Source: Candidatus Woesearchaeota archaeon (lineage in GTDB: Archaea > Nanobdellota > Nanobdellia > Woesearchaeales > UBA12501). From it: a stretch of DNA of 64,000 bases. Below, in pieces: positions 20,023 to 60,540 of the stretch. The stretch lies in NCBI GenBank assembly GCA_030651375.1, contig JAUSFM010000006.1, forward strand, positions 12,646 through 76,645, given 5' to 3'. Under the pieces are notes generated by a model. That model was not told the origin of the DNA and ran no database searches. It was given only the letters and a program-made list of their open reading frames with translations. The first letter of the stretch is position 1. Each line of letters begins with the position of its first letter. A program made the translations under genes and the position numbers.

Positions 20023-20096
20023 ATTCTGTTTTTTGTTTTTGCCATTTAAATTGTTTATGCAAAAATCATATAAATAACACCTTCTTTTTCATTTCT

Positions 20097-35418: not shown

Positions 35419-36408
35419 TCACTTCTCAGCGCGCACAAGAACATATTCAAGAAGCCCGTCCTTATGCGCTTTGTACAACGAATAATCACACCAGAATCCA
35501 AGCATGGTTGCAAACCTTCCCCTAATTTTTCTCTGGCGCGCAACATTGTCCGGCCGCTGCGCTTCGTGATAATAGCCCGGAATGGTTTGCGCCCCCACTT
35601 TTTGTATGGTGACGTTGCGGAAGCCGGCGTTTTCCAGCTGGGCCTTGTATTGTTCTGGTGTTACCACATTTGCTTTTGGGCACCGCCAAAGAAACCGTGC
35701 CGCATGCACCTTGATTTTTTCCATGATTTTTTTTGGCTGGTGATTCACCAGATAATCAGCAATGCTCACCACACCTCCCGGCTGCAGCACACGGTATGCT
35801 TCACGCATAAAATCTTCGCGCGTGTTGAAATGCACCGTGCCCTCAATACTGGTGACGTGCGAAAATGTCGTATCTGGAAATGGCAACTTGGTTGCCGTGC
35901 CATGGTGCGCAGTGATATGCTTGGCAAGCCCTGCTTTTTGCGCCCGCTGTTTTGTCCATTCAACATGCTTCCACGTCACATCCAATGCCTCAATTGTACA
36001 TCCAAACGTGGTGTGCAAGAAAACATCCTGCGTGCCCATGCCGCAGCCGACGTCAAGCAGCCTGCTTTCTTTTGTAAGGCCGGCCATGGTGCCGATTCTG
36101 TGCACAAGATTTTCTGCTGCGGCAACATAGTCAGTTATACCATCTTCCCACAGGCCGAAGTTCAGGTAGCCGTTGTGGTACTCGCCGAAATTTTCAGCCC
36201 CAACGCCATAGAATTTTTCAACGCGTGACTCGTGGGTTTTGGTGCCCCATGCCGTGCGGGTGCTCGGTACCTGTTTTGCTTTTTTTTGCTTTAATTGTTT
36301 TTGTTTTAATCGTTTCACTCTGCCACCTAAAAAAGAGAAAATGTGGGGGGTATTTAATGATTTCTTTTCAATCAACTTTAAATACCCATCTACCTTGTGT
36401 TCTCTCAT
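35419..36408 (-). CDS. Class I SAM-dependent methyltransferase
   Basis: LLDVGCGMGTQ (motif I), VSIADYLV and an overall CMAS/Methyltransf_11-like layout. Start ATG 36408. The alternative ATG 36516 would add a hydrophobic N-terminus but overlaps the plus-strand ORF. Confidence 0.7.
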   Translation of the reverse strand: MREHKVDGYLKLIEKKSLNTPHIFSFLGGRVKRLKQKQLKQKKAKQVPSTRTAWGTKTHESRVEKFYGVGAENFGEYHNGYLNFGLWEDGITDYVAAAENLVHRIGTMAGLTKESRLLDVGCGMGTQDVFLHTTFGCTIEALDVTWKHVEWTKQRAQKAGLAKHITAHHGTATKLPFPDTTFSHVTSIEGTVHFNTREDFMREAYRVLQPGGVVSIADYLVNHQPKKIMEKIKVHAARFLWRCPKANVVTPEQYKAQLENAGFRNVTIQKVGAQTIPGYYHEAQRPDNVARQRKIRGRFATMLGFWCDYSLYKAHKDGLLEYVLVRAEK

Positions 36409-36430
36409 CAACCAAAAAAGAGGCGATACT

Positions 36431-36682
36431 ATGAATCCAAAAAAAGTTGCAGTAACAGTGGGCATTATGTTTGCGGTGTTCCACACGCTGGGCGTGCTGC
36501 TGGTGCAGAAAGGCATGCTGGACTACTGGGGCAAGGTGCACCTTGTTTCAATCCAACACACGGTTCAACCCTTTATGCTCATGCCGTTTGTGCAGGGCAT
36601 TGTGACTGCGATTGTTTCCGGCCTTGTTGTTGGCTGGGTATTTGCAACCGTATGGAACTGGGTGGATAAGAAAGTCAAATAA
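36431..36682 (+). CDS. Small 2-TM membrane protein (83 aa)
   Basis: MNPKKVAVTVGIMFAVFHTLGVLLV...GIVTAIVSGLVVGWVFATVWNWV. Confidence 0.45.
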   Translation: MNPKKVAVTVGIMFAVFHTLGVLLVQKGMLDYWGKVHLVSIQHTVQPFMLMPFVQGIVTAIVSGLVVGWVFATVWNWVDKKVK

Positions 36683-39071: not shown

Positions 39072-40211
39072 TTAGTACAGTGCCGGACAGCTGTTCAGCA
39101 CCGCGTCTTTATTTGCTTGATTAGCAGCTTTCAGCCGCTGCGTAAATTCTTCACTCTTGACTGAAATGGTAATCTCATTGTTCTCGTTTGCCGCCATCGC
39201 CGCATCTATGCTTGCCAGTGCAGCACCTCCTTGCGCCGCAATGACAGCGCACTGCTGCATTTCTGTGCTCGTGATGGCCGCACCACCAGAATTGTAAAAC
39301 GCCTGCAATGCATCAGCCCGATCGCGTGAAATTTCAACCACCTGTGTCGCCCGGCGCAGTGCCCTGCTCATAAGGCACGTGTACATATTCTGGTCTTTTG
39401 CAAATACCGCGCCGATAAACGAGGGAAAGCCAAGCGTAAATGGCGAACCGCCAGACTGTTCCGCTTGCCAACCAGTTCCTTGTTTCTGATAAAACGCCAG
39501 CGGACTGCTCTGTAGGTTTTCCTCGTCACCAATCAAATTTTCATTCACTACGACTGCGCTGACTTGTGCGTCGCCAACTCCTGCGAACGAAGGCGGAAGT
39601 GCCGGCGGTTGTGTGGCTATGTCGTCTGAATTGATAATAAATTTCACAAACGGATTATTCTCATAGTTCAGGGTTGTCACGTCGGTTGGTTGGATAAACG
39701 CATAATCAATTTTCTCACCTTCCTGCGCCAGCGGAAAATCAAGCAGCGTGCTTATTTTTTCCTGCATCGGCCCAAAATTCACAAAATAATATTTTATCGA
39801 TGGAGACGTCATCATAATCATGGTATTCGTGCGCATCGGCAGGTCAAAACTCATCGTAATGGTCAGAAGCTTTTTCGTGGCCAGCTCTGCCGGCGCAAAA
39901 ATCAGCACCGTGCCGCTCGCAATGCGCTGGTCCATCACGCGGTATTCAGTGCATTCAAACTGAATGGGCACATCAGCGATGTCAATCGGCTGCTTTGCTC
40001 CAGGAGAAACTCCTCTGCCGGAAAAAATCAGCTCCAGCTGGGAGGCAAGCTCAACGCCGAGCTTATTTTTTGAAAGCTGCTGCTGATAACTAATGACCGT
40101 CATGAAAAAAAACAGGATAAGCCCGCCGGCTATCATAATGAAAATCCAGTTGAACTGCACTTCAACAATGCCTCGTTTTGAACATCGTGGAAATGGTTTG
40201 ATGCGTTTCAT
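39072..40211 (-). CDS. Large pilin-like (class III signal) protein
   Basis: MKRIKPFPRCSKRGIVEVQFNWIFIMIAGGLILFFF. Start ATG 40211 lies 4 nt after the upstream stop. Confidence 0.6.
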   Translation of the reverse strand: MKRIKPFPRCSKRGIVEVQFNWIFIMIAGGLILFFFMTVISYQQQLSKNKLGVELASQLELIFSGRGVSPGAKQPIDIADVPIQFECTEYRVMDQRIASGTVLIFAPAELATKKLLTITMSFDLPMRTNTMIMMTSPSIKYYFVNFGPMQEKISTLLDFPLAQEGEKIDYAFIQPTDVTTLNYENNPFVKFIINSDDIATQPPALPPSFAGVGDAQVSAVVVNENLIGDEENLQSSPLAFYQKQGTGWQAEQSGGSPFTLGFPSFIGAVFAKDQNMYTCLMSRALRRATQVVEISRDRADALQAFYNSGGAAITSTEMQQCAVIAAQGGAALASIDAAMAANENNEITISVKSEEFTQRLKAANQANKDAVLNSCPALY

Positions 40212-40215
40212 GGTT

Positions 40216-43200
40216 TCATAACCGCTCAAGCTCGTCAAAAAGATCGTCATCACTTTTTTGAGCTGCACGCTCGTGCTCTTCAGCTTTTGCATTCTTTTGC
40301 TGCGCAGGCGCTTGGTTTTGTGGGGGAAACATTTTTCCTGGCACCACGCGCGGCCGTGCCGGCTCGTGCTCTTGTTTTCGCTGCAGTGCCGTGAGCGGAA
40401 GCCATTCGCTTACCGCGTCAGGAAGTTGTTCAACGACTTTGCCTGCCAGCTGGGTGCCTGCTTTTGCAGCAGTGCGCACGAGATGTGCTGCGGCATGCGC
40501 CGCATGCATCGGCCGGAGGAACGTCACTGGCTGGCCTGTTTTTCCCTTAGACTGAAAGACCCCTGTTTTTTTGGTGAAGCGGTCAATAACCGTGCCGCGT
40601 TCGCGCTCACGCGTTTCAACACGCTGGCGCCGTCGTGCAAGCCCTGTTTCCTGCACGCGCTGTGCAGCTTCAACTGCCTTTTTTTGCTCGGTATCACCCG
40701 ATGAAATCGGTTTGAAAGGTGCGATAAGGGCGGGTTTCGGCACCAATGTTGGTGACGTGGATGCCAAGAAGCCCGCCCCTCCACCAATAAGAAGTATTCC
40801 TATAATAAAAAGAATATTTGATTTTACAAACGCCCACACCGCGCTTGGCTGCGCTTGCTCTGTCTTTTTTTCCTGCGTGCCGCCTGGCAGCACACCGCAT
40901 CGTCCGAGGTTGCAAATGCCTGACGTGCAGTCATCAGCAGAGGCGCACGCTCTTCCCGGTTTGCATTTGTTTGGGCATGCAGTGCCGCAGTCAACATCGC
41001 TTTCATTTCCATTTGCTGCATTGTCTGCACAGGTTGGAAGTTGGCAGGTTTTGGTTGTTTTGACATCGCAATAACTGCTGATACAATCGTTGTCAAATCC
41101 ACACGCCTTGTTCAAGTCGCAGCGTGAGCACACTAATCCACCACAGTCAGAATCAGTTTCATCGCCGTTCTTGCGCACGTCATCACATTTCGGCGGTACA
41201 CAGCGGCCTTCAAGGCAATATTCTCCCAGACAATCAAAATCAGTCTGGCAGCTATCGCCTTCTCCACATGTGTTGCCACAACTTCCTCCACAGTCCGTGC
41301 CGGTTTCGTCGCCATCTTTGATGCTATTGCTGCACGTCTGGGGCACCGTTACAACAATTCTTTCCCTGCCGGATGCCTTGTTGCCGAGCGTGTCCGCCAC
41401 TTCCCAGCACATTTCACGCGTGCGGTGAACAGATACTGGCTGGGCAGCGTCAACATGGTTTGAGGGCGTGCAGGTTTCTGCGCTGCCGGTTCCGATTGTC
41501 GTGTTTGTTGCGCCCAGCAGATTTTCACCACCAAGCCCGAACAAGAATGTTGTGTCATCACAGCCGCTTTCATCATCACACACTGGAGTCACTTCAACGG
41601 TTCCGGGCGATGACTTTTTCTGCAGCACCACTTCTGGCGGGTCATGCTCAAGGCAGTCCGGATGCTGCGGGTCATAATTCAGGATGAGCGGTGATGCAGG
41701 CCCTTCAAGCCCGACGTTGTTGACCGCAGAAATGATAATCGTGTGGGTGAATGCAGGAACCTTTCCGCTGCTTCCTCCCGTGTCGTCGGTGTTGGTTTCT
41801 GATGCCGGCGCCTTGGCTTCTATGCTCGGCAATTTTCCCGTGCCGTCCCTGCCGCCAAAGGTTCCGTTCTTTTCAGTTTCTGCAACAAAATAACGGAACA
41901 TCCTGATGCTGGACTGCGTATCCGTTGCAGTAACCGCAAGATCAAGATCAAATCGTTCAGGAGTGCAGCTCGTGGTCGAGCCGTTGAAGCTTGGGGCATT
42001 AGGCGGGCTGGTGTCAATCAAAAAAAGATGCTCTTTTACCGAGCGCTGCTGCGTGCCAGCAGTGCTGCTTTCGCACGTTACTTGCATGGTGTATCTTCCA
42101 TCGGCAAGCGTGCCCAGATCAGCGCTGTGCGTTTTGCCCGGATTGCGTTCATCCTCCAAAAACGCGGTCTGGTTTTCCAGCGTGTAATAACAGCGGGAAA
42201 TTTTGTTCGTGGTAAAATTGAGTGTTGCAATGTTACTGTTTGACTCGCTTTTTGGCGATGAAATCTCAATATGAATTGGCTCGGTCAAATCAATGGTGAC
42301 TCCTGCAGGAACTTCTTGAGATAGCTGTCCCGTTCTGTCTTCACACCGCACAAAAAATACTTTGCTTAATTTTGTTTCCGGCTCCGGAAGTTCAATCTTC
42401 TGGTGGTTTATTGTTTTATAGGAACCAAATTCTTCACGTGCATAGCCGTCAAACGGGCTCATGCTGTCGAACGGCAGCCCTCCCTGCAGTGCATACTTGC
42501 ATTGGACGTCTTCATTTGCCTCAACAACAAGGTCTGAAAAAAAGTGGTGGTCATCAGGAATCTCGACAAGCAGATTGGGATCAAACGCCGCTTTCCGGAT
42601 GGTTGGTGGTTCAGTATCGACGTATATTTCCGCTTTAGTCTGGCCAATTTCTCCCTCGGGTGTCTGGCAGATAAGGAAAAAATTGTTTCCGCGCCGGTTT
42701 GGCGTCAGGTCAATAAACGGCTCGCGGGACAGCGTTGGAAACGCATGCGTCGGCCCAAACATATTTGACGAGACCATCCCCTGCAGCAGAAACCGGAATT
42801 TTGGATCACGCTGGCTGTACTTGCACATGGTGTTGAGTGGCGCGTCATTCTTGAACGTGCTCACCTCAACCGTTACATTTCTCTCACGGGAAGCGCCCAG
42901 TCGCGGTCGCGTCACCTGTATTTTCATTGTTTCATAATCAACTGCAAAAAACTGGCGGAATGTTGCTTCATTACCCACCATGTCTTTGGCGTGTATCTCC
43001 ACGACGTAAAATCCTGGCGGTAGCGCATGGCTCGGCTCGAGGCGCCAGCGTTCTCTGATTTCCCGCGACGGGATGCCGTCGATAATGTCAATAAACCCAC
43101 CGGGAGGAATTGCTTCTTCAGTGAAGTTTTCAAACTCAGGTGTTTTTTCCTGCACAAAAAAGATGCGTCCGGTCATCAACGACACGGGCTCGTCAAAGGC

Positions 43201-43803
43201 CACGACAATCTTTGGAAGCGGAGTAAATGATTCTTTAATCTGAATCACTGCCTGAAGACCTGCGCCTGCTGATTGGGTTGTTGATGCTTCTGGAGTGCTC
43301 GCCTCTGCAGATCCTGCCTGTTGTTCACGAAGCCCCCCAAGCAGTCCGCGCAGAAAGTCGTTGAGCGCGTTTTGGGAGTTTGCATCGGGCTGTGCTGGTT
43401 CTTGTCCGGCTGTTTGTTCGTTCGGTGGTGCTCCCCCCGTTTCCGGAACTGGATCAGATTCAGGTGCAGTGGGTGGTGCCTGCACCACCACGCGTCCGGC
43501 CATGCCTGGATGAATAGTGCAGTGATACGCAAATGTTCCGGCGTGGTCAAAGGTGTGCGAAAAAGTTTGGCCGTGCTGTTTGGTACCTGACTCAAATGCA
43601 TTGTTGTCGGCAGTTATGGTGTGCGGTGCATTATCATTGTTTGTCCAGATGACACTATCCCCCTCATTAACAGTGATGGCGGCAGGCGAAAATGCGAGGT
43701 TGTTGATAGACACACTTACACGGCTTGCCGAGACACAGAAACTTGCAAGTACTATCAGTATCGTGAAGAGTGCGCTGTTTCCAATGATTTTTTTTCGGTT
43801 CAT
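40216..43803 (-). CDS. 1195-aa membrane-anchored surface protein: signal peptide, cupredoxin (type-1 Cu) domain, beta-rich region, 3 Cys-rich modules, TM anchor, basic tail
   Basis: Cupredoxin region reads ITVNEGDSVIWTNNDNAPHTITAD...GTFAYHCTIHPGMAGRVVVQ, giving the H, C, H and M ligands. Three repeats of C-x6-G-[DN]-E-[ST]-x-[ST]-D-C-G... follow. TM is ILFIIGILLIGGGAGFLAS. Confidence 0.75.
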   Translation of the reverse strand: MNRKKIIGNSALFTILIVLASFCVSASRVSVSINNLAFSPAAITVNEGDSVIWTNNDNAPHTITADNNAFESGTKQHGQTFSHTFDHAGTFAYHCTIHPGMAGRVVVQAPPTAPESDPVPETGGAPPNEQTAGQEPAQPDANSQNALNDFLRGLLGGLREQQAGSAEASTPEASTTQSAGAGLQAVIQIKESFTPLPKIVVAFDEPVSLMTGRIFFVQEKTPEFENFTEEAIPPGGFIDIIDGIPSREIRERWRLEPSHALPPGFYVVEIHAKDMVGNEATFRQFFAVDYETMKIQVTRPRLGASRERNVTVEVSTFKNDAPLNTMCKYSQRDPKFRFLLQGMVSSNMFGPTHAFPTLSREPFIDLTPNRRGNNFFLICQTPEGEIGQTKAEIYVDTEPPTIRKAAFDPNLLVEIPDDHHFFSDLVVEANEDVQCKYALQGGLPFDSMSPFDGYAREEFGSYKTINHQKIELPEPETKLSKVFFVRCEDRTGQLSQEVPAGVTIDLTEPIHIEISSPKSESNSNIATLNFTTNKISRCYYTLENQTAFLEDERNPGKTHSADLGTLADGRYTMQVTCESSTAGTQQRSVKEHLFLIDTSPPNAPSFNGSTTSCTPERFDLDLAVTATDTQSSIRMFRYFVAETEKNGTFGGRDGTGKLPSIEAKAPASETNTDDTGGSSGKVPAFTHTIIISAVNNVGLEGPASPLILNYDPQHPDCLEHDPPEVVLQKKSSPGTVEVTPVCDDESGCDDTTFLFGLGGENLLGATNTTIGTGSAETCTPSNHVDAAQPVSVHRTREMCWEVADTLGNKASGRERIVVTVPQTCSNSIKDGDETGTDCGGSCGNTCGEGDSCQTDFDCLGEYCLEGRCVPPKCDDVRKNGDETDSDCGGLVCSRCDLNKACGFDNDCISSYCDVKTTKTCQLPTCADNAANGNESDVDCGTACPNKCKPGRACASADDCTSGICNLGRCGVLPGGTQEKKTEQAQPSAVWAFVKSNILFIIGILLIGGGAGFLASTSPTLVPKPALIAPFKPISSGDTEQKKAVEAAQRVQETGLARRRQRVETRERERGTVIDRFTKKTGVFQSKGKTGQPVTFLRPMHAAHAAAHLVRTAAKAGTQLAGKVVEQLPDAVSEWLPLTALQRKQEHEPARPRVVPGKMFPPQNQAPAQQKNAKAEEHERAAQKSDDDLFDELERL

Positions 43804-43831: not shown

Positions 43832-46800
43832 TCAAATGATGTTCAAGCTCACCTGCGCCGGTGGCCGCCGATCCGTCACTATAGTGAACGTTTTTGTTTT
43901 GTTAAACCCTGCAATGTCTTTTATCATGATGGTGTATGTTTTGTTCACCACTTGATTTTCAACTGCTTTCAGCCGGAGATTCGTGGTAAACCGTTTTGCC
44001 GGAAGCTCGAGAATCGTTGCCATGAGTTGATTGTCATAGGTGTCTGCACCTGGCAAATAATTTCCCGGCGTGACAAACAGGCAGGTTGGGCAAATATCAT
44101 TGTCAGCAAAGCTGCCGTTAATTTTTACCACAGCTTCGCGCGTGAAATATTTGTTCTCTTCAGGAATGGAAAAGGGCGTGTTGATGTCAACTTTCCATGC
44201 ATTTTCATCCGGCCCCCTGAAGTCGAGTGCCACGTCGCGGGTGATGGTTGCTGCCGGAACATTGTTTGCATAATCATCAACAAAAACGGTCAGGCTGTGC
44301 GGTTGTCCAAGCAGCTCTTCATCCGTCAGCCGGAATCGCTCGGGTTCAAGATTCCATTCAAAAACATAATTGTTCGTGCCAATCTGGTGCTCGGCTTGCG
44401 TGAGCGGTATTTCACGGCGGAGGTCAGGGCGTTCAGGCACATCAAACACTGCCCTTCCTTTCAAATCAAATCCACTGTCCTGCACCTGCAGGGTGATGCG
44501 CAGCACACCGTTGTACGCAACTGCAGCAGGAATATCATACGACATGATATGCGGTGCTTGATTGTCAACCACCAGCACCGGGCTGACATGGCGCCCCGCG
44601 GGCCCCTCAACATCATTGCTTAGTTTCAGTCGTGCTTCAGCGACGAGCGTGTAGGCCTTGTTGAACTGTTCCGGTGTGAAATCCTGCTGATTGCAGACAA
44701 ACACATTGCGCTGGACGCGCTCGCACCGCGCAGGCATCGGGTCTTCCTGTCCGAGCGGCGCGTCAAATCGTTTTACAAACAGCCGCCCATTAATTGAGCC
44801 GTCAGCATTTTGATCACCAATCACAACCGGCTCCTGATTTGCTGAATAATCAATTTTTACATTCCCATTTGCACTCGTGTAAAATGTTCCGTTATTCTTC
44901 ACTGCCGGCGCAAGGAACTCCCACACCGGCGGCTGTGGTGTGCCCTCATTGGTGTTGAATGCCCAGCTCGGCTTGCCGGTTTGTGAGGGCGCAAGCTGGT
45001 TTGTTGCCTTGTCAAATCCTTTGAAAATAACCAATCCCCCACCAGTAAACGGTTCGCCGTTGCGGTAGGTAATCGTGTATCGGCGTTTTCCTTCAAGCTC
45101 TTCTTTTTTCATCACCATTTTTCCGTCATGGTCAGCAAGGCGTGCGGTGATGATGCCTTCACTATTTTTATTTTCACCACCAAGCTCTGCATCAAGATAT
45201 TCATCATGCAGCGTGTCCCAGCCAAAGGTTTCAAGCAGCTGCTGTTTTTCACCACTTTCCATAAATGCACCAGTGTTCTCATTGACCAGCCGGTCGCTGA
45301 CGAGGAAATAGGTGTACTCAACTTCACTATCCGTTCCGGTGCATACATTGCGCTCACAGCCCTCACCATCGATAATTGTTTCGCTGCTTTCAGCACTTTC
45401 TTCAGCTGGTGTTGATGCTGATTCTGCGGGAATAATCGTGACGCTTATACTATCAGGAATGAGCGGCGCATCAAACGTTCCATCACTTCCTTCCTCAACC
45501 ACAATGCTCACATTCGTGATTTGCTCGTTCGTGGTTCCTTCTGCCGGGCTGTTCTGCACCACCCGCGGGCCTTGGCTGTCGACGATAATCCCCGCGAGAC
45601 TTGTTGGATCGGGAGATGGCCGTGAGACCACAATATCATCACCAAGAATACTGCCCACTCCTTTTGCAGCGAAGGTGTTGCATCCTTCTTCCAATGCTAC
45701 GGGTTCGCCAAACACATTTTCTTCTGTGGGCTTTGCAAATATATTTACCGGAATGCCTACCTGTCCGGCGACGCGCACAGGCACTTCCTCAAGCGGTGCG
45801 TCCAGTGTCAGGTTGTTTGGTGTGCCCAGTTTGACATTGGCAATTGCATAATGGTGGCGGTAGGCGCCGTACCCCGTGCGGTGATATTCCTTTTGCACCT
45901 TTCCCGTGTCATCAACCACTGGGCTGAACTGGAGGAATTTTCCAGTAAGATCAATAGGAAGTGTGTTGATGGTGAGTGTTTTCATAATTCCTGTCGGTGG
46001 GTTTACCGCCGTGGTAGTGAGTGCATCACGCTGCTGGGCAAAATCTTCATGTGGGTCAAATTCTTTTTGTTTTATTTGGGCGCCACCGCATCGTCCGGTG
46101 TAATATTCTATTTTTTTGGTGATGTCCGGATGTTTCAGCACACCGGTTACAAACAGTTCACGCTGGTTGGTGTACGCGAGCCCCTCATCAGGGTAATATT
46201 TTATTGGATATTCATTCTCATCGCTGAATGCGACCCATTCTTCACCAGCGTCAAAAAACACACTTGAAAAAATGGGCTCAAGCTGCACTTCAGGTGTCGC
46301 GGTGACCAGCGTGATAGTAAGCGGCTGAACCATCATGGCAAGTTGTGCCGATGCTCGTTCTCCAGGGAAACAGTCAGTTCCTTTTTCAGTAACGCTCACG
46401 GGTTCAAATTGAACTTCAAGAGTATAGAAATCTTTTTCATCACCCCCTGCGTTCTCAAGCTGGAGCCGCCGGAGGTCAACACCACAGCTGATGGTTGAGA
46501 CACCTTCAAGTTGGCAGTCTGCCCGTGAGATGGTGCCGGCATTTTTCTTTTCTCCTTGTATTTTCAGCACACCATTTTCAAGAATCATGCCCGTAGCAAA
46601 AATTGTTGCTTGCATCGTGTCCAGGCTTGCAGCACGGCCAGTATTGATTTTGATGCGGTAGCTGTCCTTGGGAATTCGCGGCGGGGGAGTTGGCTGGAGT
46701 TCATTACCCAGCGCGTCAAAAATCGTGACGCGTGCAGTGTCTGCAATCGTACCCGTTCCGGTATCAGCCACGCTTATTTTGAATGCTTCGCGGTCAAACG

Positions 46801-49800
46801 TAACACTCTCGTGGTGTTGCTTGTCCGCTGCGCGGACGCCGGAGATTTCAAGCGTTGCCGTGCCTCCCTGAACCGAGTTGCCGACGAGGAACGGCGTGAA
46901 TGGTGAAATAAATCCTTCGGTCTGGTCGGGAGCAAATGCAAATGCCAACGGCTGGCCATTCACCGTCATGCTTACGTCGCCGCAGCCGCCATCAAGCCCT
47001 TCAAGTCCATACTGGTCCTTCACGCGACTGTCAGAGCAGTACGCAAACACATTCTGTGCCGTGCCGTAATTTCCCGGCTCGAGCGCCACGGTTTTGTCAA
47101 TGGTGCCAAAGAAGCGCACGCTTGGGGCGAATATGTCTTTTGAAATCACGATGCGGTCGGCGCGGTTGCCGTCGAGCTGCTGCTGGCCGTCAAATTGGCA
47201 CGCCACCTGAAACACGTTGAGGTCATCTTTCAGCTCCACATTTTTTGTGTGCTCTTTTCGTTCCGTGCTTTCCTGCATGTGCTCAGCATCACCAGCGTTG
47301 AATGAGACAAACTCGCGGTTGGTTCCCATAGGATTAATGTAACACGTTGCTGGCTCATCCGTCTGCACGCGCGCAATGATATTCCGCGCACCAGTTATCG
47401 GTTCAGAGCCGCCAAAGGTTCCCGACACAACATGGATCTTGTTGGTGTCAATAATTTTTACTTCCTGCCCATGGTCAGTGTTACCGAAATCATTTACACA
47501 GCCGTAGGTAAACACATAGATGTCATCCTTGAGATTGTGGAACGAGCGGGTAAAGGCGCGGCCATGCTCATCAGTGATGGCATTGCTTTTCAACAGCGCA
47601 GCAGGCGTATCATCCGCAGGAACTTCATCACCTTTGATGTTTGTCAGTTTTGCATTGCACACCACATCTTCAGTGTATTCAAGATTCACCAGTAGCTCAC
47701 GCGGGCTGTCCGCAGAAATGGACAATACCCGCTCGTGCACTTTTCTTGGCGGATTGATGTTGACGACGATATCTGCATGCTTGACCTCTTCAAGATTATT
47801 GGCGCGATCCTGCGAGTAAAAGTTCAGCCGCGATGCGCTCTGGTCTCCGGCAGAAAGCACTTTCTGGATTTTGCACATCGTGTAATTTTTTGGATAACAA
47901 TCATGGTCAAGGCAGAAAAAGGTCGTTGCCGGTTCGCTGACGCGCACCGGGATGTCCATAAATTTTCCAATCTTCAGCCGGCCGTTTGTGTCCTGTTTTA
48001 TTTTTTCAGCAACAACACTTGTTTCAGGCGCCGCAAAGTCTCGGTTGCATTCCTGCGGATTTTGGACAAATGAGCAATCATCAACACCATTTCCATCGGC
48101 ATCTTTGAAGCAGCGCTCGCCCGGTTCTGATCCCCATTTACATAACCCAAACGAAAACAGGTCGTTGCTTCGCTGGCTAATACGGTTGGTGCCGCTGGCG
48201 CGTACTGCGCCGTCATATCGCGCATCAATTTCAACCTCTTTTGTGCCACCCCTGCTGAGTCGGTCGCCAACACATTCTTTTTCTGCGCGTGCTGGTTTGC
48301 CGGCGTCGTTGTAATCATCACAGCCCAGCGATTTCACGTCTTCGCACGTGTTTTCTCCGGTGCTGAAATAGCACGCGTCACCAAATAATGCGCACGACTG
48401 CTTATCGCATCCCACAAGAACTGGGTTTGCATTTCCTGCTGCCGGTGCCTGCGTACTGCATGCGCTGCACTGCTGTTTTTCTTGTGTAGCTGGTGCGCAG
48501 ATTCCCAATCCCAAATCAGCATTAGTTGTTTTCCATGTGCAGCCGCCCGCAGCGACTTTGCAGTGGCTCTCATCATTTTCACACGCATATTTTGTCCGGT
48601 AGCCATAACAGCTTTGCACGTCTTGGCAACTTCGGAACTGGTTTACTGTTTTTTCGCTCTTGTCATAGGTACAACCCATGAGCTGTTCGCATGCCTGTTG
48701 CGCTGCAACGCCGGGCTTGTCAAACAGCACGCCGGCAAATATCTGAAATGCACCATTACATTTTGAGCACAATTCCGGTGCTTTGCATTCAATGGCTCCT
48801 GCTGATGGCTCGGTGCAGTATGTTCCTGCAGTGCACGGTTCTCCCGAGCCGAGCACTCCAGTGCTGCAGATGTTTGTTTTTCGCTTGTCAACATCAGTGC
48901 TGTCACAGAAGCGCTGGCCTTCCACACACTCTTCCCTGCAGATATGGTCGCTGGTGACCGCGGGCTTGTTTTGATAGTTTAACTCAACCGCTACACACAC
49001 GGTATCGTCTGTTTTTTTCTGAAACTCTCTGCGCAGAGAATTAATGTCAGCGCTGCTTTGCCACTGGCTTTTCGGCAGGGCTGCACAGTTTGTTTTTTTG
49101 TTGTCACACCATCGCACGTGTTGGCTGGCAAGTAGGCAGGCAGATACCACTTCTGGAATAGCCCATTGGAGGTGCGTCATATCCTGCGCATCAGTTTGAA
49201 ACGTTGTTATCGTCGGTGCGGGAGTTTCACACGCCGGGCTGCAGGTGCAATCAGTCGGTCCGCACTGGTCAGGATTGGTGCAGCCGCAGGCGCTTCCAAC
49301 TGCGCAGCGGTCAATGCCAATCTCGCACGTCTCAACAAAATAATCCTTGTTCGGCGTATTCAGCGTGCCATCACCGCACACGCCGGTTGGCGCAGTCCTG
49401 CGCTCTGACGGGGGAATATAGGTGCACGTTGCCGTGTCAAATCTACAGAAACTGTTGCAGTTCAGCGTGCCGCCGCTGAATTTTTTTCCGGGCTCAAATT
49501 CGACGTCAGCACAGCTTGTTGTTCCCTGCTTGAACAGCATACGATTGCTGCCTGCCTCAAAATCACAATCCTCGCCCGCGTCAACGATACCGTTGCGGCA
49601 GTTGGTTCTTTGCACGGCGCAGCGGTGCGTGTCGGTGCTACACGTCAATCCCGCGCGGCAGTCGCGGTCGGTTGCGCATTTTTTTTCCTGCGCGCATGGC
49701 GGGCAGGTGCCGCCGCAATCAACATCACTTTCTCCGGCGTCCTGCACCGTGTTTTCGCACCGAGAGACTTCAGCGCGTGCGCCGGGAATGCAAATTCCAT

Positions 49801-50206
49801 TGGTGCAGCGCGTGTTGGCGGGGCACTGCGCGTCTTCTTGGCATTCAAGCAGGCCGCCGCAGATGTCTGCGGGAATGGACGCTTCAAACGGCTTGACACT
49901 GACGAGCTCTCCGCCGGCTGCGTCACACGTGTTTTTGTATTTTGGCTGGCGCAGAGCGCCACCATGCGTGGTGCAGCAGCCGATGGAACACTGGGACGCG
50001 AGGCTGTCATCAGTACATGCCACATTTGAAAATGTGCCTTGTTTTGCAGCGCACAGCGCCTCATCACCGCCAAACATCACTTCACAGCCATTGGCGCTGA
50101 TGCAGCACGTTTCATCATTTGCCGCACCCAACACCGGCAGGGCGAAAAAAATAATACTAAGAAAACTAATGAGAAGAATACTTAGTACCATCCTCTTTTT
50201 CAGCAT
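43832..50206 (-). CDS. Giant (2124 aa) secreted Cys-rich surface protein
   Basis: Sec signal MLKKRMVLSILLISFLSIIFFALPVLGAAN. The first 620 aa or so are Cys-dense and include one copy of the CENTVQDAGESDVDCGGTCPPC module. The rest is beta-rich and Cys-poor. No family recognised. Confidence 0.7.
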   Translation of the reverse strand: MLKKRMVLSILLISFLSIIFFALPVLGAANDETCCISANGCEVMFGGDEALCAAKQGTFSNVACTDDSLASQCSIGCCTTHGGALRQPKYKNTCDAAGGELVSVKPFEASIPADICGGLLECQEDAQCPANTRCTNGICIPGARAEVSRCENTVQDAGESDVDCGGTCPPCAQEKKCATDRDCRAGLTCSTDTHRCAVQRTNCRNGIVDAGEDCDFEAGSNRMLFKQGTTSCADVEFEPGKKFSGGTLNCNSFCRFDTATCTYIPPSERRTAPTGVCGDGTLNTPNKDYFVETCEIGIDRCAVGSACGCTNPDQCGPTDCTCSPACETPAPTITTFQTDAQDMTHLQWAIPEVVSACLLASQHVRWCDNKKTNCAALPKSQWQSSADINSLRREFQKKTDDTVCVAVELNYQNKPAVTSDHICREECVEGQRFCDSTDVDKRKTNICSTGVLGSGEPCTAGTYCTEPSAGAIECKAPELCSKCNGAFQIFAGVLFDKPGVAAQQACEQLMGCTYDKSEKTVNQFRSCQDVQSCYGYRTKYACENDESHCKVAAGGCTWKTTNADLGLGICAPATQEKQQCSACSTQAPAAGNANPVLVGCDKQSCALFGDACYFSTGENTCEDVKSLGCDDYNDAGKPARAEKECVGDRLSRGGTKEVEIDARYDGAVRASGTNRISQRSNDLFSFGLCKWGSEPGERCFKDADGNGVDDCSFVQNPQECNRDFAAPETSVVAEKIKQDTNGRLKIGKFMDIPVRVSEPATTFFCLDHDCYPKNYTMCKIQKVLSAGDQSASRLNFYSQDRANNLEEVKHADIVVNINPPRKVHERVLSISADSPRELLVNLEYTEDVVCNAKLTNIKGDEVPADDTPAALLKSNAITDEHGRAFTRSFHNLKDDIYVFTYGCVNDFGNTDHGQEVKIIDTNKIHVVSGTFGGSEPITGARNIIARVQTDEPATCYINPMGTNREFVSFNAGDAEHMQESTERKEHTKNVELKDDLNVFQVACQFDGQQQLDGNRADRIVISKDIFAPSVRFFGTIDKTVALEPGNYGTAQNVFAYCSDSRVKDQYGLEGLDGGCGDVSMTVNGQPLAFAFAPDQTEGFISPFTPFLVGNSVQGGTATLEISGVRAADKQHHESVTFDREAFKISVADTGTGTIADTARVTIFDALGNELQPTPPPRIPKDSYRIKINTGRAASLDTMQATIFATGMILENGVLKIQGEKKNAGTISRADCQLEGVSTISCGVDLRRLQLENAGGDEKDFYTLEVQFEPVSVTEKGTDCFPGERASAQLAMMVQPLTITLVTATPEVQLEPIFSSVFFDAGEEWVAFSDENEYPIKYYPDEGLAYTNQRELFVTGVLKHPDITKKIEYYTGRCGGAQIKQKEFDPHEDFAQQRDALTTTAVNPPTGIMKTLTINTLPIDLTGKFLQFSPVVDDTGKVQKEYHRTGYGAYRHHYAIANVKLGTPNNLTLDAPLEEVPVRVAGQVGIPVNIFAKPTEENVFGEPVALEEGCNTFAAKGVGSILGDDIVVSRPSPDPTSLAGIIVDSQGPRVVQNSPAEGTTNEQITNVSIVVEEGSDGTFDAPLIPDSISVTIIPAESASTPAEESAESSETIIDGEGCERNVCTGTDSEVEYTYFLVSDRLVNENTGAFMESGEKQQLLETFGWDTLHDEYLDAELGGENKNSEGIITARLADHDGKMVMKKEELEGKRRYTITYRNGEPFTGGGLVIFKGFDKATNQLAPSQTGKPSWAFNTNEGTPQPPVWEFLAPAVKNNGTFYTSANGNVKIDYSANQEPVVIGDQNADGSINGRLFVKRFDAPLGQEDPMPARCERVQRNVFVCNQQDFTPEQFNKAYTLVAEARLKLSNDVEGPAGRHVSPVLVVDNQAPHIMSYDIPAAVAYNGVLRITLQVQDSGFDLKGRAVFDVPERPDLRREIPLTQAEHQIGTNNYVFEWNLEPERFRLTDEELLGQPHSLTVFVDDYANNVPAATITRDVALDFRGPDENAWKVDINTPFSIPEENKYFTREAVVKINGSFADNDICPTCLFVTPGNYLPGADTYDNQLMATILELPAKRFTTNLRLKAVENQVVNKTYTIMIKDIAGFNKTKTFTIVTDRRPPAQVSLNII

Positions 50207-55562: not shown

Positions 55563-56084
55563 TCAGGCGATTTTCTGTTCCAGCGCTGTTTTCGCCTCTC
55601 CAGCGGCCATTCCAATAAGTTCGCCGAATGCCAGCATGTCATGGGCAGCGCGCATTTCATACAGGTTTGTTGCGCCAGAAATCAGGAGCATGGGCACCTT
55701 ATATCTTCTGCAGAGCATCACATTCTGGCGCATTCTGCCCAACAGAATGCCCCGCGCCGCGCCCTGCGCCGTGAGAATCGTATTGAAATTAAACGCAATC
55801 ATTTTTTCTTTGTCGTGCGCGAGTGCTGCAAGCACATGGTTGAAGCCGGATTTTCGCTGGTGCGTGCCATCGCGTTCACCATGCACTTCAAGATTGTAAA
55901 AAATGTGTATCGGGCTCTTTTCAATGGCGTGGCGCGTTTTTTCCGGCACGCCTGCGCTGTTCATAATCAGATCTCTACGTAGGTTTTTTCCGACGACATA
56001 AACTGTTTCGTACCCCAGTTTTTTGCCGAGTGCCTCAAACGGTGCGGTTTGGTGTTCTTTGTCCGGAATCACGATGTCAATCAT
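55563..56084 (-). CDS. RNase P protein component 3 (Rpp30-like, PHP/TIM-barrel)
   Basis: Size (173 aa) and GFNHVLAALAHDKEKMIAFNF...LCRRYKVPMLLISGA resemble Rpp30. Recognition is by eye only. Confidence 0.55.
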   Translation of the reverse strand: MIDIVIPDKEHQTAPFEALGKKLGYETVYVVGKNLRRDLIMNSAGVPEKTRHAIEKSPIHIFYNLEVHGERDGTHQRKSGFNHVLAALAHDKEKMIAFNFNTILTAQGAARGILLGRMRQNVMLCRRYKVPMLLISGATNLYEMRAAHDMLAFGELIGMAAGEAKTALEQKIA

Positions 56085-57178
56085 GGGGTTAGTACAATCA
56101 GTTGTTCGTAGGGTGCGGTGGTCTCTATTTGTTTGGTATTTTCTGCCTTTTCCTTGTCTTTGTTATCTATTTTATTGTCCACTTTTTCTATCTTCTGGAG
56201 CAGTGAGCAGGCATTGCACAACTCATTGTTTGTTGGCTCGCTGCAGGCGATGCATTCGCGCAGTGTTTTTTCCTGCGCGCCGTAGTGCGCCTTGAGCCGG
56301 GGAAGGATGCCCATAAACGCCTTCATGATGTTTTCTTTTGCTTGTTCGGCGTTTGGCACAATGCTGAATATATTGCGGATTTCCCGTCGGTAGGAATCGC
56401 TGCTGCACGGGCACATGCCGTACTTGACTGGCAGCTCCATCATTTTTGCGTAGCGCACCACGTCTACTTCGCGGGTGAAGTAGAACGGCTTGACGCGCTG
56501 GACAAATCTCACATCATCTCCGAGGCCACTCTTGGGCCCGAGGCGTGCCGCACATTCGACATTGCTGCGCAGCAGGTTCATCATGATAACTTGGGATTCA
56601 TCGTCAAGGTTGTGGCCCGTTGCGATACAATCCGGGCCGAGCTCTTTTGCTTTTTTGTTGATCAAATACCTACGCAGCACGCCGCAGACGTGGCAGCTCT
56701 TGTAGTCATATCCATTTGCGTGCAGCCGGTCGCGGATGTGGCACAACGCCATGCCGAATTCGTTTCTGAAATCAATTTCGTGGAGCGCGATGTTTATTTT
56801 CTGGCAGAATTGCCGGAGATTTTTGAGGTTTTCTTCGGTGTAGCAGCCAATTCTCGCATCAACCGTTACCGCCTCTATAGTATAGCCAAGGTTTTTGAGC
56901 ACGTGCAACAAGGCGGTTGAGTCCTTGCCGCCGCTTGCCGCAACCAAGACCTTGCTTTTTTTGGTGAACAGGTGGTGGTCGCTGATTGTTTTTTCAACCT
57001 GTTCCTGAAACTGTGCAATAAACGCAGCATCGTACGGCTCGGGAGGCGCTGTTTTTGGCAGTACCGTACAGCAGGCCTGCCCCTCTGTTTCAGAAACACT
57101 GCCACCAGTACGAGCGCTGTTGCCACTATCTGCGCCACTATCTATAGTCTCTATCTCTATATGAAATTCAGTCTCCAT
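56081..57178 (-). CDS. PP-loop ATPase, tRNA thiolation family (TtcA/TtuA/Ncs6-like)
   Basis: VLVAASGGKDSTALL PP-loop, with CxxC and Cys clusters (HVCGV, CPCSS, CIACSEPTNNELCNAC). Confidence 0.75.
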   Translation of the reverse strand: METEFHIEIETIDSGADSGNSARTGGSVSETEGQACCTVLPKTAPPEPYDAAFIAQFQEQVEKTISDHHLFTKKSKVLVAASGGKDSTALLHVLKNLGYTIEAVTVDARIGCYTEENLKNLRQFCQKINIALHEIDFRNEFGMALCHIRDRLHANGYDYKSCHVCGVLRRYLINKKAKELGPDCIATGHNLDDESQVIMMNLLRSNVECAARLGPKSGLGDDVRFVQRVKPFYFTREVDVVRYAKMMELPVKYGMCPCSSDSYRREIRNIFSIVPNAEQAKENIMKAFMGILPRLKAHYGAQEKTLRECIACSEPTNNELCNACSLLQKIEKVDNKIDNKDKEKAENTKQIETTAPYEQLIVLTP

Positions 57179-60200: not shown

Positions 60201-60540
60201 CTACAAGCTGAACCTGAAAATTGAAGAGCAAACTGCACGGGCAGACCGCGAATTGTTCAACAATACTATCCTCGTCAAGCTCACCAAGCGCGGCTTTATC
60301 GGCCGATTGCTTGCCTACTGGCTCTACCTTGTCTTTGGCATCGTTATCCTGTTTGGCATACTATTCCTCATCACCTCCGAAGTGCGCAAGCGCCACAAGG
60401 CACTGCTTCAGCAGCTCGCGGTTGAGGTCAAGCAAAAAATCAACGTCGCTACACCGAAACAAACTACCAAACAAATCGCCTCAAAACAAAAAAAATCAAA
60501 ATACGCACTGCCGCCTACACGGCTGAAGCTGAAGGAATAA
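57286..60540 (+). CDS. 1084-aa multi-pass surface protein with alternating beta-rich ectodomains and TM hairpins
   Basis: Eight hydrophobic helices, each flanked by K/R clusters (e.g. IAARKRKKLF, KKRKALIISVL, YKIKKRRARL, RKLKKKKP). An acidic E/P-rich segment is also present. No family recognised. Confidence 0.6.
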   Translation: MSSKNGIFHRAGILFPRSLLSYQSCRSYASFFIALLLIGVTILAALGLPASALREDFLALSQQKTLPVCGCSIRTNTVTVKNTGDITSVYELSQAGDAASWSTLTETRFSLKPGQVQDVAQFVRAPCSAEGASKNTITISTLFQTSKKIEQDFTVPVCNNIVVVPVRNSAVSCPAQPTQFSFMLANPLSYPEVYDVSVAPTTVSLTNGDAVLASKAISISEHSILLAPQQKKKILLFLQLPSTVYGDAAFALTVSTRNSGLQTTIPFRAVINQCYDFQLSLPASIKFCTEFENRLPLQLANTANIRNEYQLTAGIMTPEGASQEEYDLGAYALPGKVRQQVSTDLLVESEPGDYVLGVEATPTLGDLAKYAESPLEITYCDDNGKSLTPEEYDALQTVLEQPEPQPADETEAGTTEPTDTTDGTTEENPVSTAFVAFPIILVVIVLLLGIIAARKRKKLFLPATVPTYAHLIRAHAPTKKRKALIISVLAIVFVLLLLIGLLLVNSLSPPAESDESGNFTEELPVEEIEEPAPAEQPEEQLNVSTISEDETGEQPATSPLISILFILLIAFIGLLLVVLAYKIKKRRARLAIYNLGSSKGVSDKPFVLRTNILDVKDKAEKALRTPRKMKLLKWLGALFLVALLVLGGIGLATMLKSSHQNSIVSIDDSFAERAAALGVTFSGATIRIPAGGKEVTIPLVFRNIDDGTPRTVNMDFGIDWLKPSSTSVLLKPGREKTADLTIQSTAPTGSYTILFEVTNDKGELFAADELNLDIVGKNAWLPAAIGIIVGVLIIIVLLVIRKLKKKKPTTQIIGDETSMIETVAHHKLREAAEREAAAESVRRAALKEEKRAARRKKIKKTGISVGVLLLVALLTLGVFTLSRNYMITFNPSSAAPVEISAEEPVEYTLNVTGLTSVPIKILNKNKNIVYNITAESSEDWITFDLRSVVVEPQDSETITMLLAPHGGVKDGTYKLNLKIEEQTARADRELFNNTILVKLTKRGFIGRLLAYWLYLVFGIVILFGILFLITSEVRKRHKALLQQLAVEVKQKINVATPKQTTKQIASKQKKSKYALPPTRLKLKE

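Follow-up and report, generated by a model that had tools for sequence, protein, structure and literature searches.

The whole stretch of DNA analysed here (64 kb, hereafter the window) comes from a groundwater archaeon of the Woesearchaeota type (DPANN) and carries a locus of 23 co-directional genes that probably encodes a surface appendage. It includes a gene for a 1195-aa protein with the following order from N- to C-terminus: Sec signal, cupredoxin head, acidic linker, Ig-like stalk, three Cys modules, TM helix and basic tail. The features of the locus are given below in window coordinates, with the evidence for each in brackets.

28089-55510, minus strand: the whole surface-appendage locus, 23 genes in one orientation that overlap or are separated by short gaps (ORF list, motif scan)
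43832-50206, minus strand: upstream gene for a 2124-aa secreted Cys-rich giant protein (28 nt from the 1195-aa gene; same position in loci L001, L002 and L099)
40216-43803, minus strand: gene for the 1195-aa type-I membrane protein (ORF list, ATG start; four full-length orthologues, 49-71% identity)
43723-43803, minus strand: Sec-type signal peptide, aa 1-27, with n-region RKK, hydrophobic core and SAS/R junction (hydropathy, AF2 helix 3-25, sequence)
43480-43722, minus strand: type-1 copper cupredoxin domain, aa 28-108 (Pfam, PDB matches, AF2; translation of the span reproduces the domain exactly)
43501-43623, minus strand: span of the four predicted copper ligands, His61 (43621-43623), Cys95 (43519-43521), His98 (43510-43512) and Met101 (43501-43503) (translation check)
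43249-43479, minus strand: acidic low-complexity linker, aa 109-185, pI 4.05 (composition; pLDDT <50 outside one helix)
41338-43248, minus strand: stalk, aa 186-822 (AF2 with a 45-sequence alignment, Foldseek, family profile)
40888-41337, minus strand: three Cys-rich modules, aa 823-972 (sequence; Cys invariant across the family)
40756-40842, minus strand: single TM helix, aa 988-1016, family motif IGGGxGYL (hydropathy, AF2 helix 989-1016, translation)
40219-40755, minus strand: basic cytoplasmic tail, aa 1017-1195 (composition, AF2, family conservation)
39072-40211, minus strand: downstream gene for a 379-aa protein with the class-III-like N-terminus KRG-IVEVQFNWIFIMIAGGLILFFF (junction sequence, motif scan)

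A Kyte-Doolittle scan of the 1195-aa protein detected two hydrophobic segments only, at aa ~5-33 (signal peptide) and aa ~986-1017 (TM helix). By composition an acidic ectodomain contrasts with a basic tail, and the predicted topology is that of a long type-I membrane protein with the copper head outside the cell, at its N-terminal tip. The residues P, A, E, Q, G, S and T make up 78% of the linker, which is predicted to be disordered apart from a single short conserved helix near aa 145-155 (N-x-F-L-R-x-L). The tail (31 K+R versus 22 D+E, pI 10.0) is predicted by AF2 to form two long helices and carries the C-terminal motif D-x-F-x-E-L (aa 1186-1192, window positions 40228-40248), which is family-conserved in alignments A1, A3 and A4. 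A first-pass annotation made from the letters alone had described a Sec signal, a P/A/E/Q-rich linker, one TM helix and a basic tail of ~180 aa, all of which are borne out by hydropathy and composition; its ~600 aa of beta-rich sequence and three Cys-rich modules correspond to six predicted beta-sandwich domains and modules of 8 Cys each, and the peptide it quoted is aa 38-107 of the ORF translation.

Judged by its sequence, the head is a bona fide type-1 copper cupredoxin, as that annotation had proposed from the His-Cys-His-Met set and its spacing. Both Pfam models it had named score above their cut-offs: PF00127 with 47.3 bits (E-value 2.8e-12, gathering cut-off 21.2) and PF13473 with 33.3 bits (cut-off 27). 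Sequence matches in the PDB extend across the whole head and include the C-terminal cupredoxin of a nitrite reductase (9cck, E-value 8.7e-18), plastocyanin 1bxu (1e-12) and amicyanins (~1e-11); the Cys, His and Met of the head are aligned in all of these, in amicyanin and plastocyanin with the known ligands. More specific models remain below their cut-offs, namely TIGR02657 (amicyanin equivalog, 47 bits versus 110.2), TIGR02656 (plastocyanin, 44.3 versus 87.85) and TIGR03102 (halocyanin, 43.4 versus 93.8). Structure prediction, which the annotation had suggested as a check, agrees in that the region is predicted to be all-beta, and its sequence can be aligned over the full length with cupredoxins of known structure; the cupredoxin fold itself is suggested by the eight strands that AF2 places in aa 31-108 (pLDDT ~80-89), and the fold search with the complete model mainly picked up the Ig-like stalk.

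The ligand loop reads C-T-I-H-P-G-M and has the C-x2-H-x2-M spacing of the amicyanin type. A survey of relatives, likewise suggested at the outset, found all four ligands in every full-length orthologue: His61, Cys95, His98 and Met101 are invariant in 5/5 heads (the window protein plus four orthologues, 49-100% identity). Mean pairwise identity among the orthologues is 58% in the head and 39% in the linker, with linker and tail at 39-40%. Pro-His and His-Pro, each present in 4/5 heads, flank the ligand histidines and match the flanking residues of amicyanin, where such residues take part in partner docking. The copper site is predicted to be functional and redox-active.

The stalk comprises six predicted Ig-like beta-sandwich domains (aa 185-816, pLDDT mostly >90), three of which are repeats with a conserved Cys pair (C327/C379, C435/C487 and C538/C577). 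Foldseek matches of the model are tandem Ig/FN3 arrays of extracellular proteins, including the GhpA grappling-hook filament, and a weak match to Big_13 was also found. Each of the Cys-rich modules has 8 Cys and the motif NG-x-E-T-D-x-DCGG-x-C; similar repeats are abundant in Myxococcota. A profile of the body retrieved 617 cluster representatives at E ≤ 1e-3 (299 at E ≤ 1e-10), and the family HMM scores 953 bits against the window protein. Features common to this family are the paired-Cys Ig-like repeats, a CxDxSGCD motif, the three Cys modules, a GGxGYL TM helix and a tail with C-terminal DxFxxL. In a GTDB scan, full-body matches came from Woesearchaeota/Nanoarchaeota-type MAGs only. These results define a large family of Ig-stalk membrane proteins, so far uncharacterised, that is linked to pilin-like loci of DPANN archaea.

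The stalk gene lies directly upstream of co-directional pilin-like genes both in the window and in 19 of 20 related archaeal loci, and the body of the protein appears to be a conserved, unnamed component of the pilin-like surface-appendage locus of this lineage. At least 17 of the 23 locus genes encode pilin-like N-termini ([KR][KR][AG] followed by a hydrophobic stretch), as counted by a crude motif detector that gave 3 likely false positives in ~40 kb outside the locus; Pfam and NCBIfam models gave no match to these neighbours. The 'pilin operon' of the first-pass annotation holds as regards tightly packed, co-directional genes with pilin-like N-termini, 'pilin' being a name for that N-terminal motif alone. 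Its translational coupling stands as a 4-nt gap (AACC) between the stop codon of the 1195-aa gene and the ATG of the 379-aa gene, a spacing that suggests coupling. Orthologues of the 379-aa protein occupy the same position in loci L001, L012 and L099, and the 2124-aa protein on the other side shares with the stalk family one Cys module and, weakly, one Ig-like domain. A class-III signal has an N-terminal [KR]-[GA] cleavage motif with the hydrophobic core directly after it, retained in the mature protein. Such a pilin signal was ruled out for the 1195-aa protein, which has an ordinary Sec core followed by SAS/R and a C-terminal TM anchor; it is, on its predicted topology, a neighbour of pilin-like genes and itself no pilin.

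The copper head has a much narrower distribution than the body. Among the best 150 of the 617 family representatives a copper-competent head occurs in this clade only, with five copper-headed sequences in total. In a syntenic sister clade (protein P0009, locus L099) the head fold and the head-linker-stalk order are kept and P40, W53, N55, F85, G89, Y93 and G103 are retained, with the ligand replacements Cys to Val, His to Glu and Met to Thr. In the other members examined, the stalk begins right after the signal peptide or is preceded by other short heads. Since the sister-clade head survives without Cys, His and Met, the protein as such needs no copper; with no cupredoxin head in the remaining members examined either, its core function is independent of copper. 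The copper head is a rare, clade-specific add-on to a large family, and copper-competent, ligand-less and head-less versions offer a natural comparison for what the head adds.

The nearest relatives of the head are stand-alone environmental 'plastocyanins' of ~125 aa with 50-62% identity. The His/Cys/His/Met set is kept in 56/56 aligned stand-alone relatives, and 19 of the 34 positions that are at least 80% conserved among them are kept in all five heads, including W-T-N, H-T, Y-H-C, H and M. Five stand-alone contexts were inspected. One contains genes for hemerythrin, desulfoferrodoxin, glutaredoxin and peroxiredoxin (L094); two others (L095 and L097) contain a flavodiiron-like protein and Fe-SOD, with catalase also in L095. 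Three of the five contexts are thus of oxidative-stress type, two of these being the same locus type, and the remaining two are unrelated.

Within the 64-kb window no cytochrome, oxidase, second cupredoxin or other redox partner was found. CxxCH haem motifs are absent from the real genes of the window and occur in two out-of-frame ORFs only, both outside the locus. Neither mau-like genes, which form the context of amicyanin, nor cop genes nor His/Met-rich tracts were found in the window. A gene for MsrA is located at 20004-20573.

Type-1 copper potentials are normally high, and such a potential fits poorly with strictly anaerobic syntrophy. Woesearchaeota have been reported to lack electron transport chains (PMC8421398), and because of this no cell-side electron source or sink is evident; because the stalk has no recognisable cofactor motif, no wire would lead from the head to the membrane. 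With a copper centre at the outermost point of a protein from a lineage without reported respiratory chains, there is therefore no obvious circuit in the organism's own cell. An active head would need an external end to its circuit, be it a partner cell, a mineral or an oxidant.

Proteins of the amicyanin/plastocyanin type (PF00127) belong to the same fold family and have the same ligand set, but they are soluble or lipid-anchored, whereas here the domain is joined to a non-catalytic Ig-like stalk of ~1100 aa that has a TM helix of its own, and there is no apparent partner such as methylamine dehydrogenase, NirK or a photosystem. In archaeal NirK-cupredoxin fusions (PDB 9cck; PMC11237513) the domain is likewise tethered to a larger extracytoplasmic protein. 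Halocyanin, sulfocyanin and the lipid-modified azurin Laz of Neisseria also hold a type-1 copper domain anchored on the outside of the membrane. These proteins are short (~150-200 aa), lie near the membrane and supply known respiratory enzymes; the linker of Laz is the Ala/Pro-rich H.8. In Laz, as in the window protein, the anchored cupredoxin is accompanied by a low-complexity Pro/Ala/Glu-rich linker (PMC6277709). In contrast to all three, the domain described here is predicted to cap the distal end of a rod of six domains, and its lineage has been reported to be without respiratory complexes (PMC8421398).

Plant phytocyanins (stellacyanin, uclacyanin and early nodulin-like proteins) have a similar layout of signal peptide, cupredoxin, low-complexity linker and surface membrane anchor, and some members persist after losing their copper ligands (PMC3184959), in parallel with the ligand-less sister clade. 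The likeness is unrelated and convergent: phytocyanins are small and GPI-anchored with a glycosylated AGP linker and, unlike the protein described here, have no Ig-like stalk, no TM helix and tail, and no pilus link. Multihaem cytochrome nanowires and e-pili likewise hold a redox-capable cofactor away from the cell and resemble our case in the locus rich in type IV pilin-like genes. However, there is a single copper per molecule here and no chain of cofactors along the stalk, which makes long-range conduction through the 1195-aa protein implausible. The Woesearchaeota/Nanoarchaeota Ig-stalk family matches the body in full, including its position upstream of pilin-like genes, and differs in the copper-competent head, confined to this clade among the members examined. 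The protein is a new variant among anchored blue-copper proteins, and an intact blue-copper head on a surface stalk is unusual in a group reported to lack respiratory chains.

The reading we favour, with a probability of about 0.4, is that a clade-specific fusion places a functional type-1 copper domain on an adhesin-like stalk of the pilus-associated surface apparatus, tens of nanometres from the cell, probably for contact-dependent redox exchange or docking. In one clade, a small plastocyanin/amicyanin-like gene would have been fused, by way of a flexible acidic linker, to the N-terminus of the stalk protein. Once exported by the Sec route, the head would fold outside the cell, bind one copper through His61, Cys95, His98 and Met101, and be held tens of nanometres from the membrane. 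It could then serve as a tethered one-electron docking or transfer module: as the appendage apparatus joins cells, the head would encounter a redox partner on the cell or surface contacted, or else a soluble oxidant, while the cytoplasmic tail may link the protein to an intracellular partner. DPANN archaea such as Woesearchaeota are thought to depend on other cells or to live attached to them. The first-pass annotation had raised exchange of electrons outside the cell, possibly with a host, and copper-dependent adhesion, all of which we treat as hypotheses. With its ~85 aa, the head is expressible and has a simple spectroscopic read-out, and, if active, would provide a handle on cell-host interaction.

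A bolder version of this reading, to which we give low odds, has a respiration-less fermentative DPANN symbiont docking a stalk-mounted blue-copper mimic onto the extracytoplasmic copper or haem electron carriers of its host and dumping or drawing single electrons, with contact provided by the pilus-like apparatus. Candidate hosts would include archaea or bacteria with plastocyanin-like carriers. If true, this would be protein-mediated interspecies electron exchange without cytochromes or conductive pili.

It is possible, though on balance doubtful, that the head is a recognition or adhesion module at the stalk tip in which copper does no more than stabilise the fold and electron exchange plays no part. 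Early-nodulin-like phytocyanins of plants are a precedent. The sister clade, whose head scaffold persists at the equivalent locus although Cys, His and Met are gone, is consistent with such a role, as are the typical tandem-Ig, adhesin- or receptor-like rod of the body, the abundance of pilin-like genes in the locus and the reported lack of respiratory chains in the lineage (PMC8421398). Yet in the copper-headed clade the four ligands are strictly invariant over ~50% divergence, together with second-shell signature residues common to stand-alone electron carriers, and this is more than fold stability requires. Nor does the tip diverge rapidly as expected for host recognition, P0001 and P0002 being 81% identical in the head versus 79% in the stalk. 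Should the head prove redox-inert, it would be a modest case of cupredoxin-fold reuse, like the plant nodulin-like proteins.

The oxidative-stress clusters around the closest stand-alone relatives (L094, L095 and L097), the MsrA gene in the window and the groundwater or freshwater habitat would suit a surface oxidant defence, in which the head trades electrons with oxygen-derived species or oxygen-handling enzymes and so, in micro-oxic groundwater, protects the many disulfides outside the cell as well as the oxygen-sensitive cell itself. We consider this improbable: only three of the five contexts fit, two of them being one locus type, the ROS genes of those clusters are absent near the gene in the window, a stalk of tens of nanometres is unnecessary for detoxification, and the head would have no electron supply. 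Very unlikely is a CopI-like role in which the head captures or buffers surface copper for acquisition or tolerance; the one conserved copper site, open to the medium, and the absence of a redox partner nearby agree with it, but a protein of 1195 aa that binds one buried copper tightly would buffer poorly, His/Met-rich tracts and cop genes are missing from the window, and the ligand set and loop are of the electron-carrier type. That an assembly or gene-calling error joined a small cupredoxin gene to a stalk gene, as the mostly stand-alone relatives and the head-less family members might suggest, is refuted by the same architecture in independent assemblies, with a continuous ORF in four others (two from Logan, one each from NCBI and ENA) and the fused ORF in a GTDB MAG, and further opposed by the recurrence of the window sequence in independent runs and the identical head-linker-stalk order of the sister clade.

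The sequence of the window was found in several groundwater runs from 2017 to 2025, with 100% of sampled words present in one run and part of them in nine others, and the habitat is groundwater or freshwater.

The reading frame proposed in the first-pass annotation (40216..43803, minus strand) opens with an ATG and encodes 1195 aa, and translation of 43480–43722 (minus strand) returned the very peptide that had been quoted as a cupredoxin domain. In an HMM check, this head (aa 28–108) was assigned to the plastocyanin/azurin family (PF00127, 47.3 bits, E = 2.8e-12, gathering threshold 21.2) and also matched PF13473 (33.3 bits, threshold 27). A PDB search aligned the whole head with 9cck_A, the tethered C-terminal cupredoxin of copper nitrite reductase (E = 8.7e-18), with plastocyanin 1bxu (E = 1e-12), and with many amicyanins (E about 1e-11); Cys95, His98, and Met101 coincide with the corresponding ligands in these alignments. 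The C-x2-H-x2-M spacing is common to the head (C-T-I-H-P-G-M) and amicyanin (C-T-P-H-P-F-M). Pro-His and His-Pro motifs stand beside the two ligand histidines in four of the five orthologues, with the same flanks in amicyanin, where they have a role in the docking patch. The strands of the head were predicted by AlphaFold2 with a pLDDT of 80–89. Scores against the NCBIfam amicyanin, plastocyanin, and halocyanin models fell far under all three cut-offs; thus, the head is a member of the superfamily that belongs to none of the named families. CuA and multicopper oxidase were ruled out by the presence of a single domain with the type-1 ligand set only. We infer that the predicted head binds copper and can cycle between Cu(II) and Cu(I).

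A collection of 5.8 billion proteins held only four full-length orthologues (71, 60, 59, and 49% identity), which come from Logan, NCBI, and ENA assemblies, one of them within a GTDB MAG. The ligand-conservation survey found His61, Cys95, His98, and Met101 in all orthologues. Mean pairwise identity among the orthologues is 58% in the head, 67% in the stalk, 39% in the linker, and 40% in the tail, and the head is therefore clearly constrained. Searching with the head alone retrieved 103 small stand-alone proteins (about 110–140 aa, 42–62% identity), many of them labelled plastocyanin. The H/C/H/M set is kept in 56 of 56 aligned stand-alone relatives, and 19 of the 34 positions that are at least 80% conserved in them recur throughout the five heads, W-T-N, H-T, Y-H-C, H, and M among them. 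Since the ligands and conserved positions are common with stand-alone proteins, the head still resembles a functional type-1 copper protein; its closeness to free-standing cupredoxins roughly equals that to its own most distant orthologue. From the mixed alignment of the family and small cupredoxins (A5), which wrongly set the head against the first stalk domain of members lacking one, only the cupredoxin rows were used. Most of the closest stand-alone relatives carry a conserved Cys at a lipobox-like position. A Saccharimonadales (CPR) MAG has the related cupredoxin gene near a bAvd and reverse-transcriptase pair (L098:2830-5408), the hallmark of a diversity-generating retroelement.

The 1195-aa protein is a Sec-exported, single-pass membrane protein, in which a disordered linker of ~77 residues joins the N-terminal cupredoxin to the tip of a rod that has six domains and three disulfide modules. 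The remaining layout described in the first-pass annotation was recovered in full: one TM helix after the signal peptide (there are just two hydrophobic segments, aa ~5–33 and ~986–1017), a P/A/E/Q-rich linker (aa 109–185, 78% P/A/E/Q/G/S/T), a beta-rich region of ~600 aa (six beta-sandwich domains placed by AlphaFold2 at aa 185–816), three Cys-rich modules (24 Cys within aa 823–972), and a basic tail (aa 1017–1195, pI 10.0, all extracellular segments being acidic). The model was built on a 45-sequence family alignment and reached a mean pLDDT of 76.7, compared with 36 for a 5-sequence alignment; values were mostly above 90 in the stalk, 80–89 in the head, and below 50 in the linker. From ordinary domain dimensions, we estimate the distance between head and membrane at tens of nanometres.

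Foldseek paired the model with tandem Ig/FN3 rods of a generic kind, namely complement C3/TEP, receptor ectodomains, and GhpA, the grappling-hook filament protein of the predatory bacterium Aureispira (PDB 9flp/9fly/9flv). GhpA is the top structural hit for the stalk, and its filament is another contact-dependent cell-capture device; the likeness of the model to it is probably a generic tandem-Ig-rod similarity. Pfam recognized only a Big_13 domain, in some family members, and a PDB sequence search found no solved structure matching the stalk profile. The Cys modules (window 40888-41337, NG-x-E-T-D-x-DCGG-x-C...) are 40–48% identical to repeats in very many Myxococcota/Polyangia proteins (L021–L093), and so the module is common to DPANN archaea and myxobacteria.

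An exhaustive search of 1.84 billion cluster representatives with the stalk profile (aa 183–822) exposed the family to which the body belongs: 617 proteins pass E ≤ 1e-3, and 299 of them E ≤ 1e-10; most have 1000–1400 aa, with the match beginning 60–100 residues from the N-terminus. A word-indexed search with the family profile (A3) recovered almost none of them, its hits being proteins with Cys or Ig repeats in common. The entire body plan is conserved among the 45 aligned sequences.

Conserved features of the family body in the 45-sequence alignment
Ig-like repeats, with a Cys pair in each
CxD-E-SGCD motif
Three Cys modules
TM helix with GGxGYL
C-terminal D-x-F-x-x-L

In the tail, the end D-x-F-x-E-L (aa 1186–1192, window 40228-40248), F1076, and W1134-x-P-L (aa 1134–1137) are found family-wide and the rest is poorly conserved, a pattern that suggests an intracellular binding partner. 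Full-body matches in GTDB came only from MAGs titled Woesearchaeota, Nanoarchaeota, Nanoarchaeia, or 'uncultured archaeon', and from an apparently mislabelled Methanosarcinales series; the scan used alignment A4, whose Cys-module pattern alone also drew many Myxococcota proteins. The stalk family is so far uncharacterised.

In the representatives inspected, the copper head was confined to one clade. Among the best 150 of the 617 representatives, the head HMM matched strongly only in the clade of the window protein, and further headed members may exist beyond these 150. In most other members inspected the stalk directly follows the signal peptide; a few start with short N-terminal regions of another kind, and P0008, a family protein 23% identical to the window protein, has a small Cys-rich head instead. 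A weak match (16 bits) was obtained for P0009, a full-length relative with 30% identity. Its head keeps the scaffold residues P40, W53, N55, F85, G89, Y93, and G103 and a His near position 61, with Val, Glu, and Thr replacing Cys95, His98, and Met101. A second ligand-less sequence, flanked by the same genes, lies on a JGI contig (L099:1905-5630), the one sister-clade locus in the JGI metagenome scans, the first of which gave no matches. Since head, linker, and stalk are joined in these two sequences too, the fusion is older than the split of the two clades. The alignments indicate that the copper-headed clade kept a complete site under strict conservation and that the sister clade lost it; an orthologue from the latter is a natural copper-less control.

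The gene lies in a surface locus of 23 co-directional genes, running from 55510 down to 28089 with short gaps or 4-nt overlaps. The 4-nt gap reported on its downstream side was reproduced: AACC separates its stop codon from the ATG of the next gene. At least 17 of the 23 products begin with [KR][KR][AG] followed by a hydrophobic stretch of at least 15 residues, an arrangement typical of class III (prepilin) signal peptides in archaea (PMC6098224). No Pfam or NCBIfam model matched any of these pilin-like genes, and neither a pilus ATPase nor a platform protein nor a prepilin peptidase was found in the window; 'pilin-like' is accordingly a reading of the N-termini. The 1195-aa protein itself was ruled out as a pilin, as it has an ordinary Sec signal (the wrong type) and a C-terminal anchor.

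In 19 of 20 related archaeal loci, a crude motif detector placed co-directional pilin-like genes downstream of the family gene. Gene order is kept in four loci of relatives (L001, L002, L012, and L099), with a giant Cys-rich protein upstream and a ~375-aa protein carrying K-[RK]-G-[IV]-V-E-V-Q-F-N-W-I-F downstream. RNase P p30 and a PP-loop ATPase adjoin the locus both in the window (55563-57178) and at P0008 (L010:2057-9962), indicating that the chromosomal position has persisted across a large evolutionary distance. The secreted protein of 2124 aa encoded upstream (43832-50206) has no Pfam or NCBIfam match; a single Cys module and, by weak similarity, an Ig-like domain connect it with the stalk family, and its C-terminal part is conserved in L099. 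A SAM-dependent methyltransferase gene lies amid the pilin-like genes (35419-36516), as it does in L001, and its product may modify surface proteins.

The first-pass interpretation is supported in part: by sequence, a type-1 copper domain displayed at the cell surface and encoded among pilin-like genes is established, and electron exchange with a host is a hypothesis. As to its function, we tentatively favour a tethered docking and electron-transfer head whose redox partner is met outside the cell on appendage contact (probability about 0.4). The appendage would make contact, the tethered head would then reach an extracellular redox partner, and electrons would be transferred. Cytochrome-type extracellular electron transfer was ruled out, the real genes having no CxxCH motifs. 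Several observations count against the electron-transfer reading: the window has no second cupredoxin and no haem (CxxCH) motifs in real genes, Woesearchaeota reportedly have no complexes I–IV (PMC8421398), the stalk lacks a chain of cofactors that could carry electrons along it, and the sister clade does without copper. The existence of this clade, together with the adhesin-like body, speaks instead for a redox-inert recognition head, a somewhat unlikely alternative given that ligands and second-shell residues are strictly conserved and that the tip shows no hypervariability.

Defence against oxidants at the cell surface seems improbable. It draws on the genomic contexts of stand-alone relatives, three of five of which include oxidative-stress genes. 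L094 has superoxide reductase, peroxiredoxin, glutaredoxin, and hemerythrin; L095 and L097 both have Fe-SOD with a flavodiiron-like protein, and L095 has catalase as well. However, the other two contexts are unlike these, and the window locus has no such genes. Copper buffering by the head is, in our estimation, very improbable, and the view that the fusion is an assembly artefact or chimera is refuted by the agreement of independent assemblies.

Cupredoxin domains are notoriously promiscuous. Judged by its residues, the head is a type-1 cupredoxin of the amicyanin/plastocyanin kind, whose closest counterparts are stand-alone proteins, so far uncharacterised, and the cupredoxin tethered to archaeal NirK; fusions of NirK with plastocyanin have been described (PMC11237513). 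Halocyanin, sulfocyanin, and Laz are likewise anchored blue-copper proteins (PMC6277709), and plant phytocyanins, which include copper-less nodulin-like members, have a convergent layout of signal peptide, cupredoxin, low-complexity linker, and anchor (PMC3184959). Unlike in all of these, the anchor of the window protein is an Ig-like stalk of ~1100 aa that ends in a conserved tail in the cytoplasm, and the gene lies in a pilin-like locus of a lineage reportedly without a respiratory chain. A full-text literature search for cupredoxin, plastocyanin, or blue copper together with DPANN or Woesearchaeota yielded no description of such a protein; what comes closest is an account of orphan CuA-type NosZ-like proteins from marine DPANN (PMC10936187). 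What is new here is a known redox domain in a new architecture and context, on an uncharacterised stalk family: a testable oddity within a poorly understood group, and a rare one, with five sequences.

The window is an archaeal chromosome fragment, with genes for RNase P p30, SecY, ribosomal proteins S5/L3/L4, a Hef-type helicase/nuclease, and RPA, and with the following further features.

Further features of the window
20004-20573: MsrA
57286-60540, plus strand: 1084-aa membrane protein with weak DUF2207_C and FixG_C Ig-like matches
61238-61507: archaeal SRP RNA
62622-63086: small lamin-tail-domain protein

Its L3 is at most 50% identical to those of GTDB species representatives, the nearest being an unclassified archaeon and a 'Candidatus Woesearchaeota' MAG (46–50%), followed by several co-assembly MAGs titled 'uncultured Methanosarcinales archaeon' (43–47%). 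The L3 of MAGs with the latter title (L002, L005–L009, L014, L016, and others) is thus no more remote from that of the window than the L3 of a Woesearchaeota MAG (46%), and these MAGs also encode the Ig-stalk family. Since Woesearchaeota/Nanoarchaeota MAGs do so as well, the Methanosarcinales title of this series looks like a wrong label. A Methanosarcinales origin of the window was ruled out, L3 identities and family distribution both pointing to a Woesearchaeota-type DPANN archaeon. No RNA runs holding the window sequence were found; its DNA is present in metagenome runs of groundwater and freshwater, dated 2017 to 2025.
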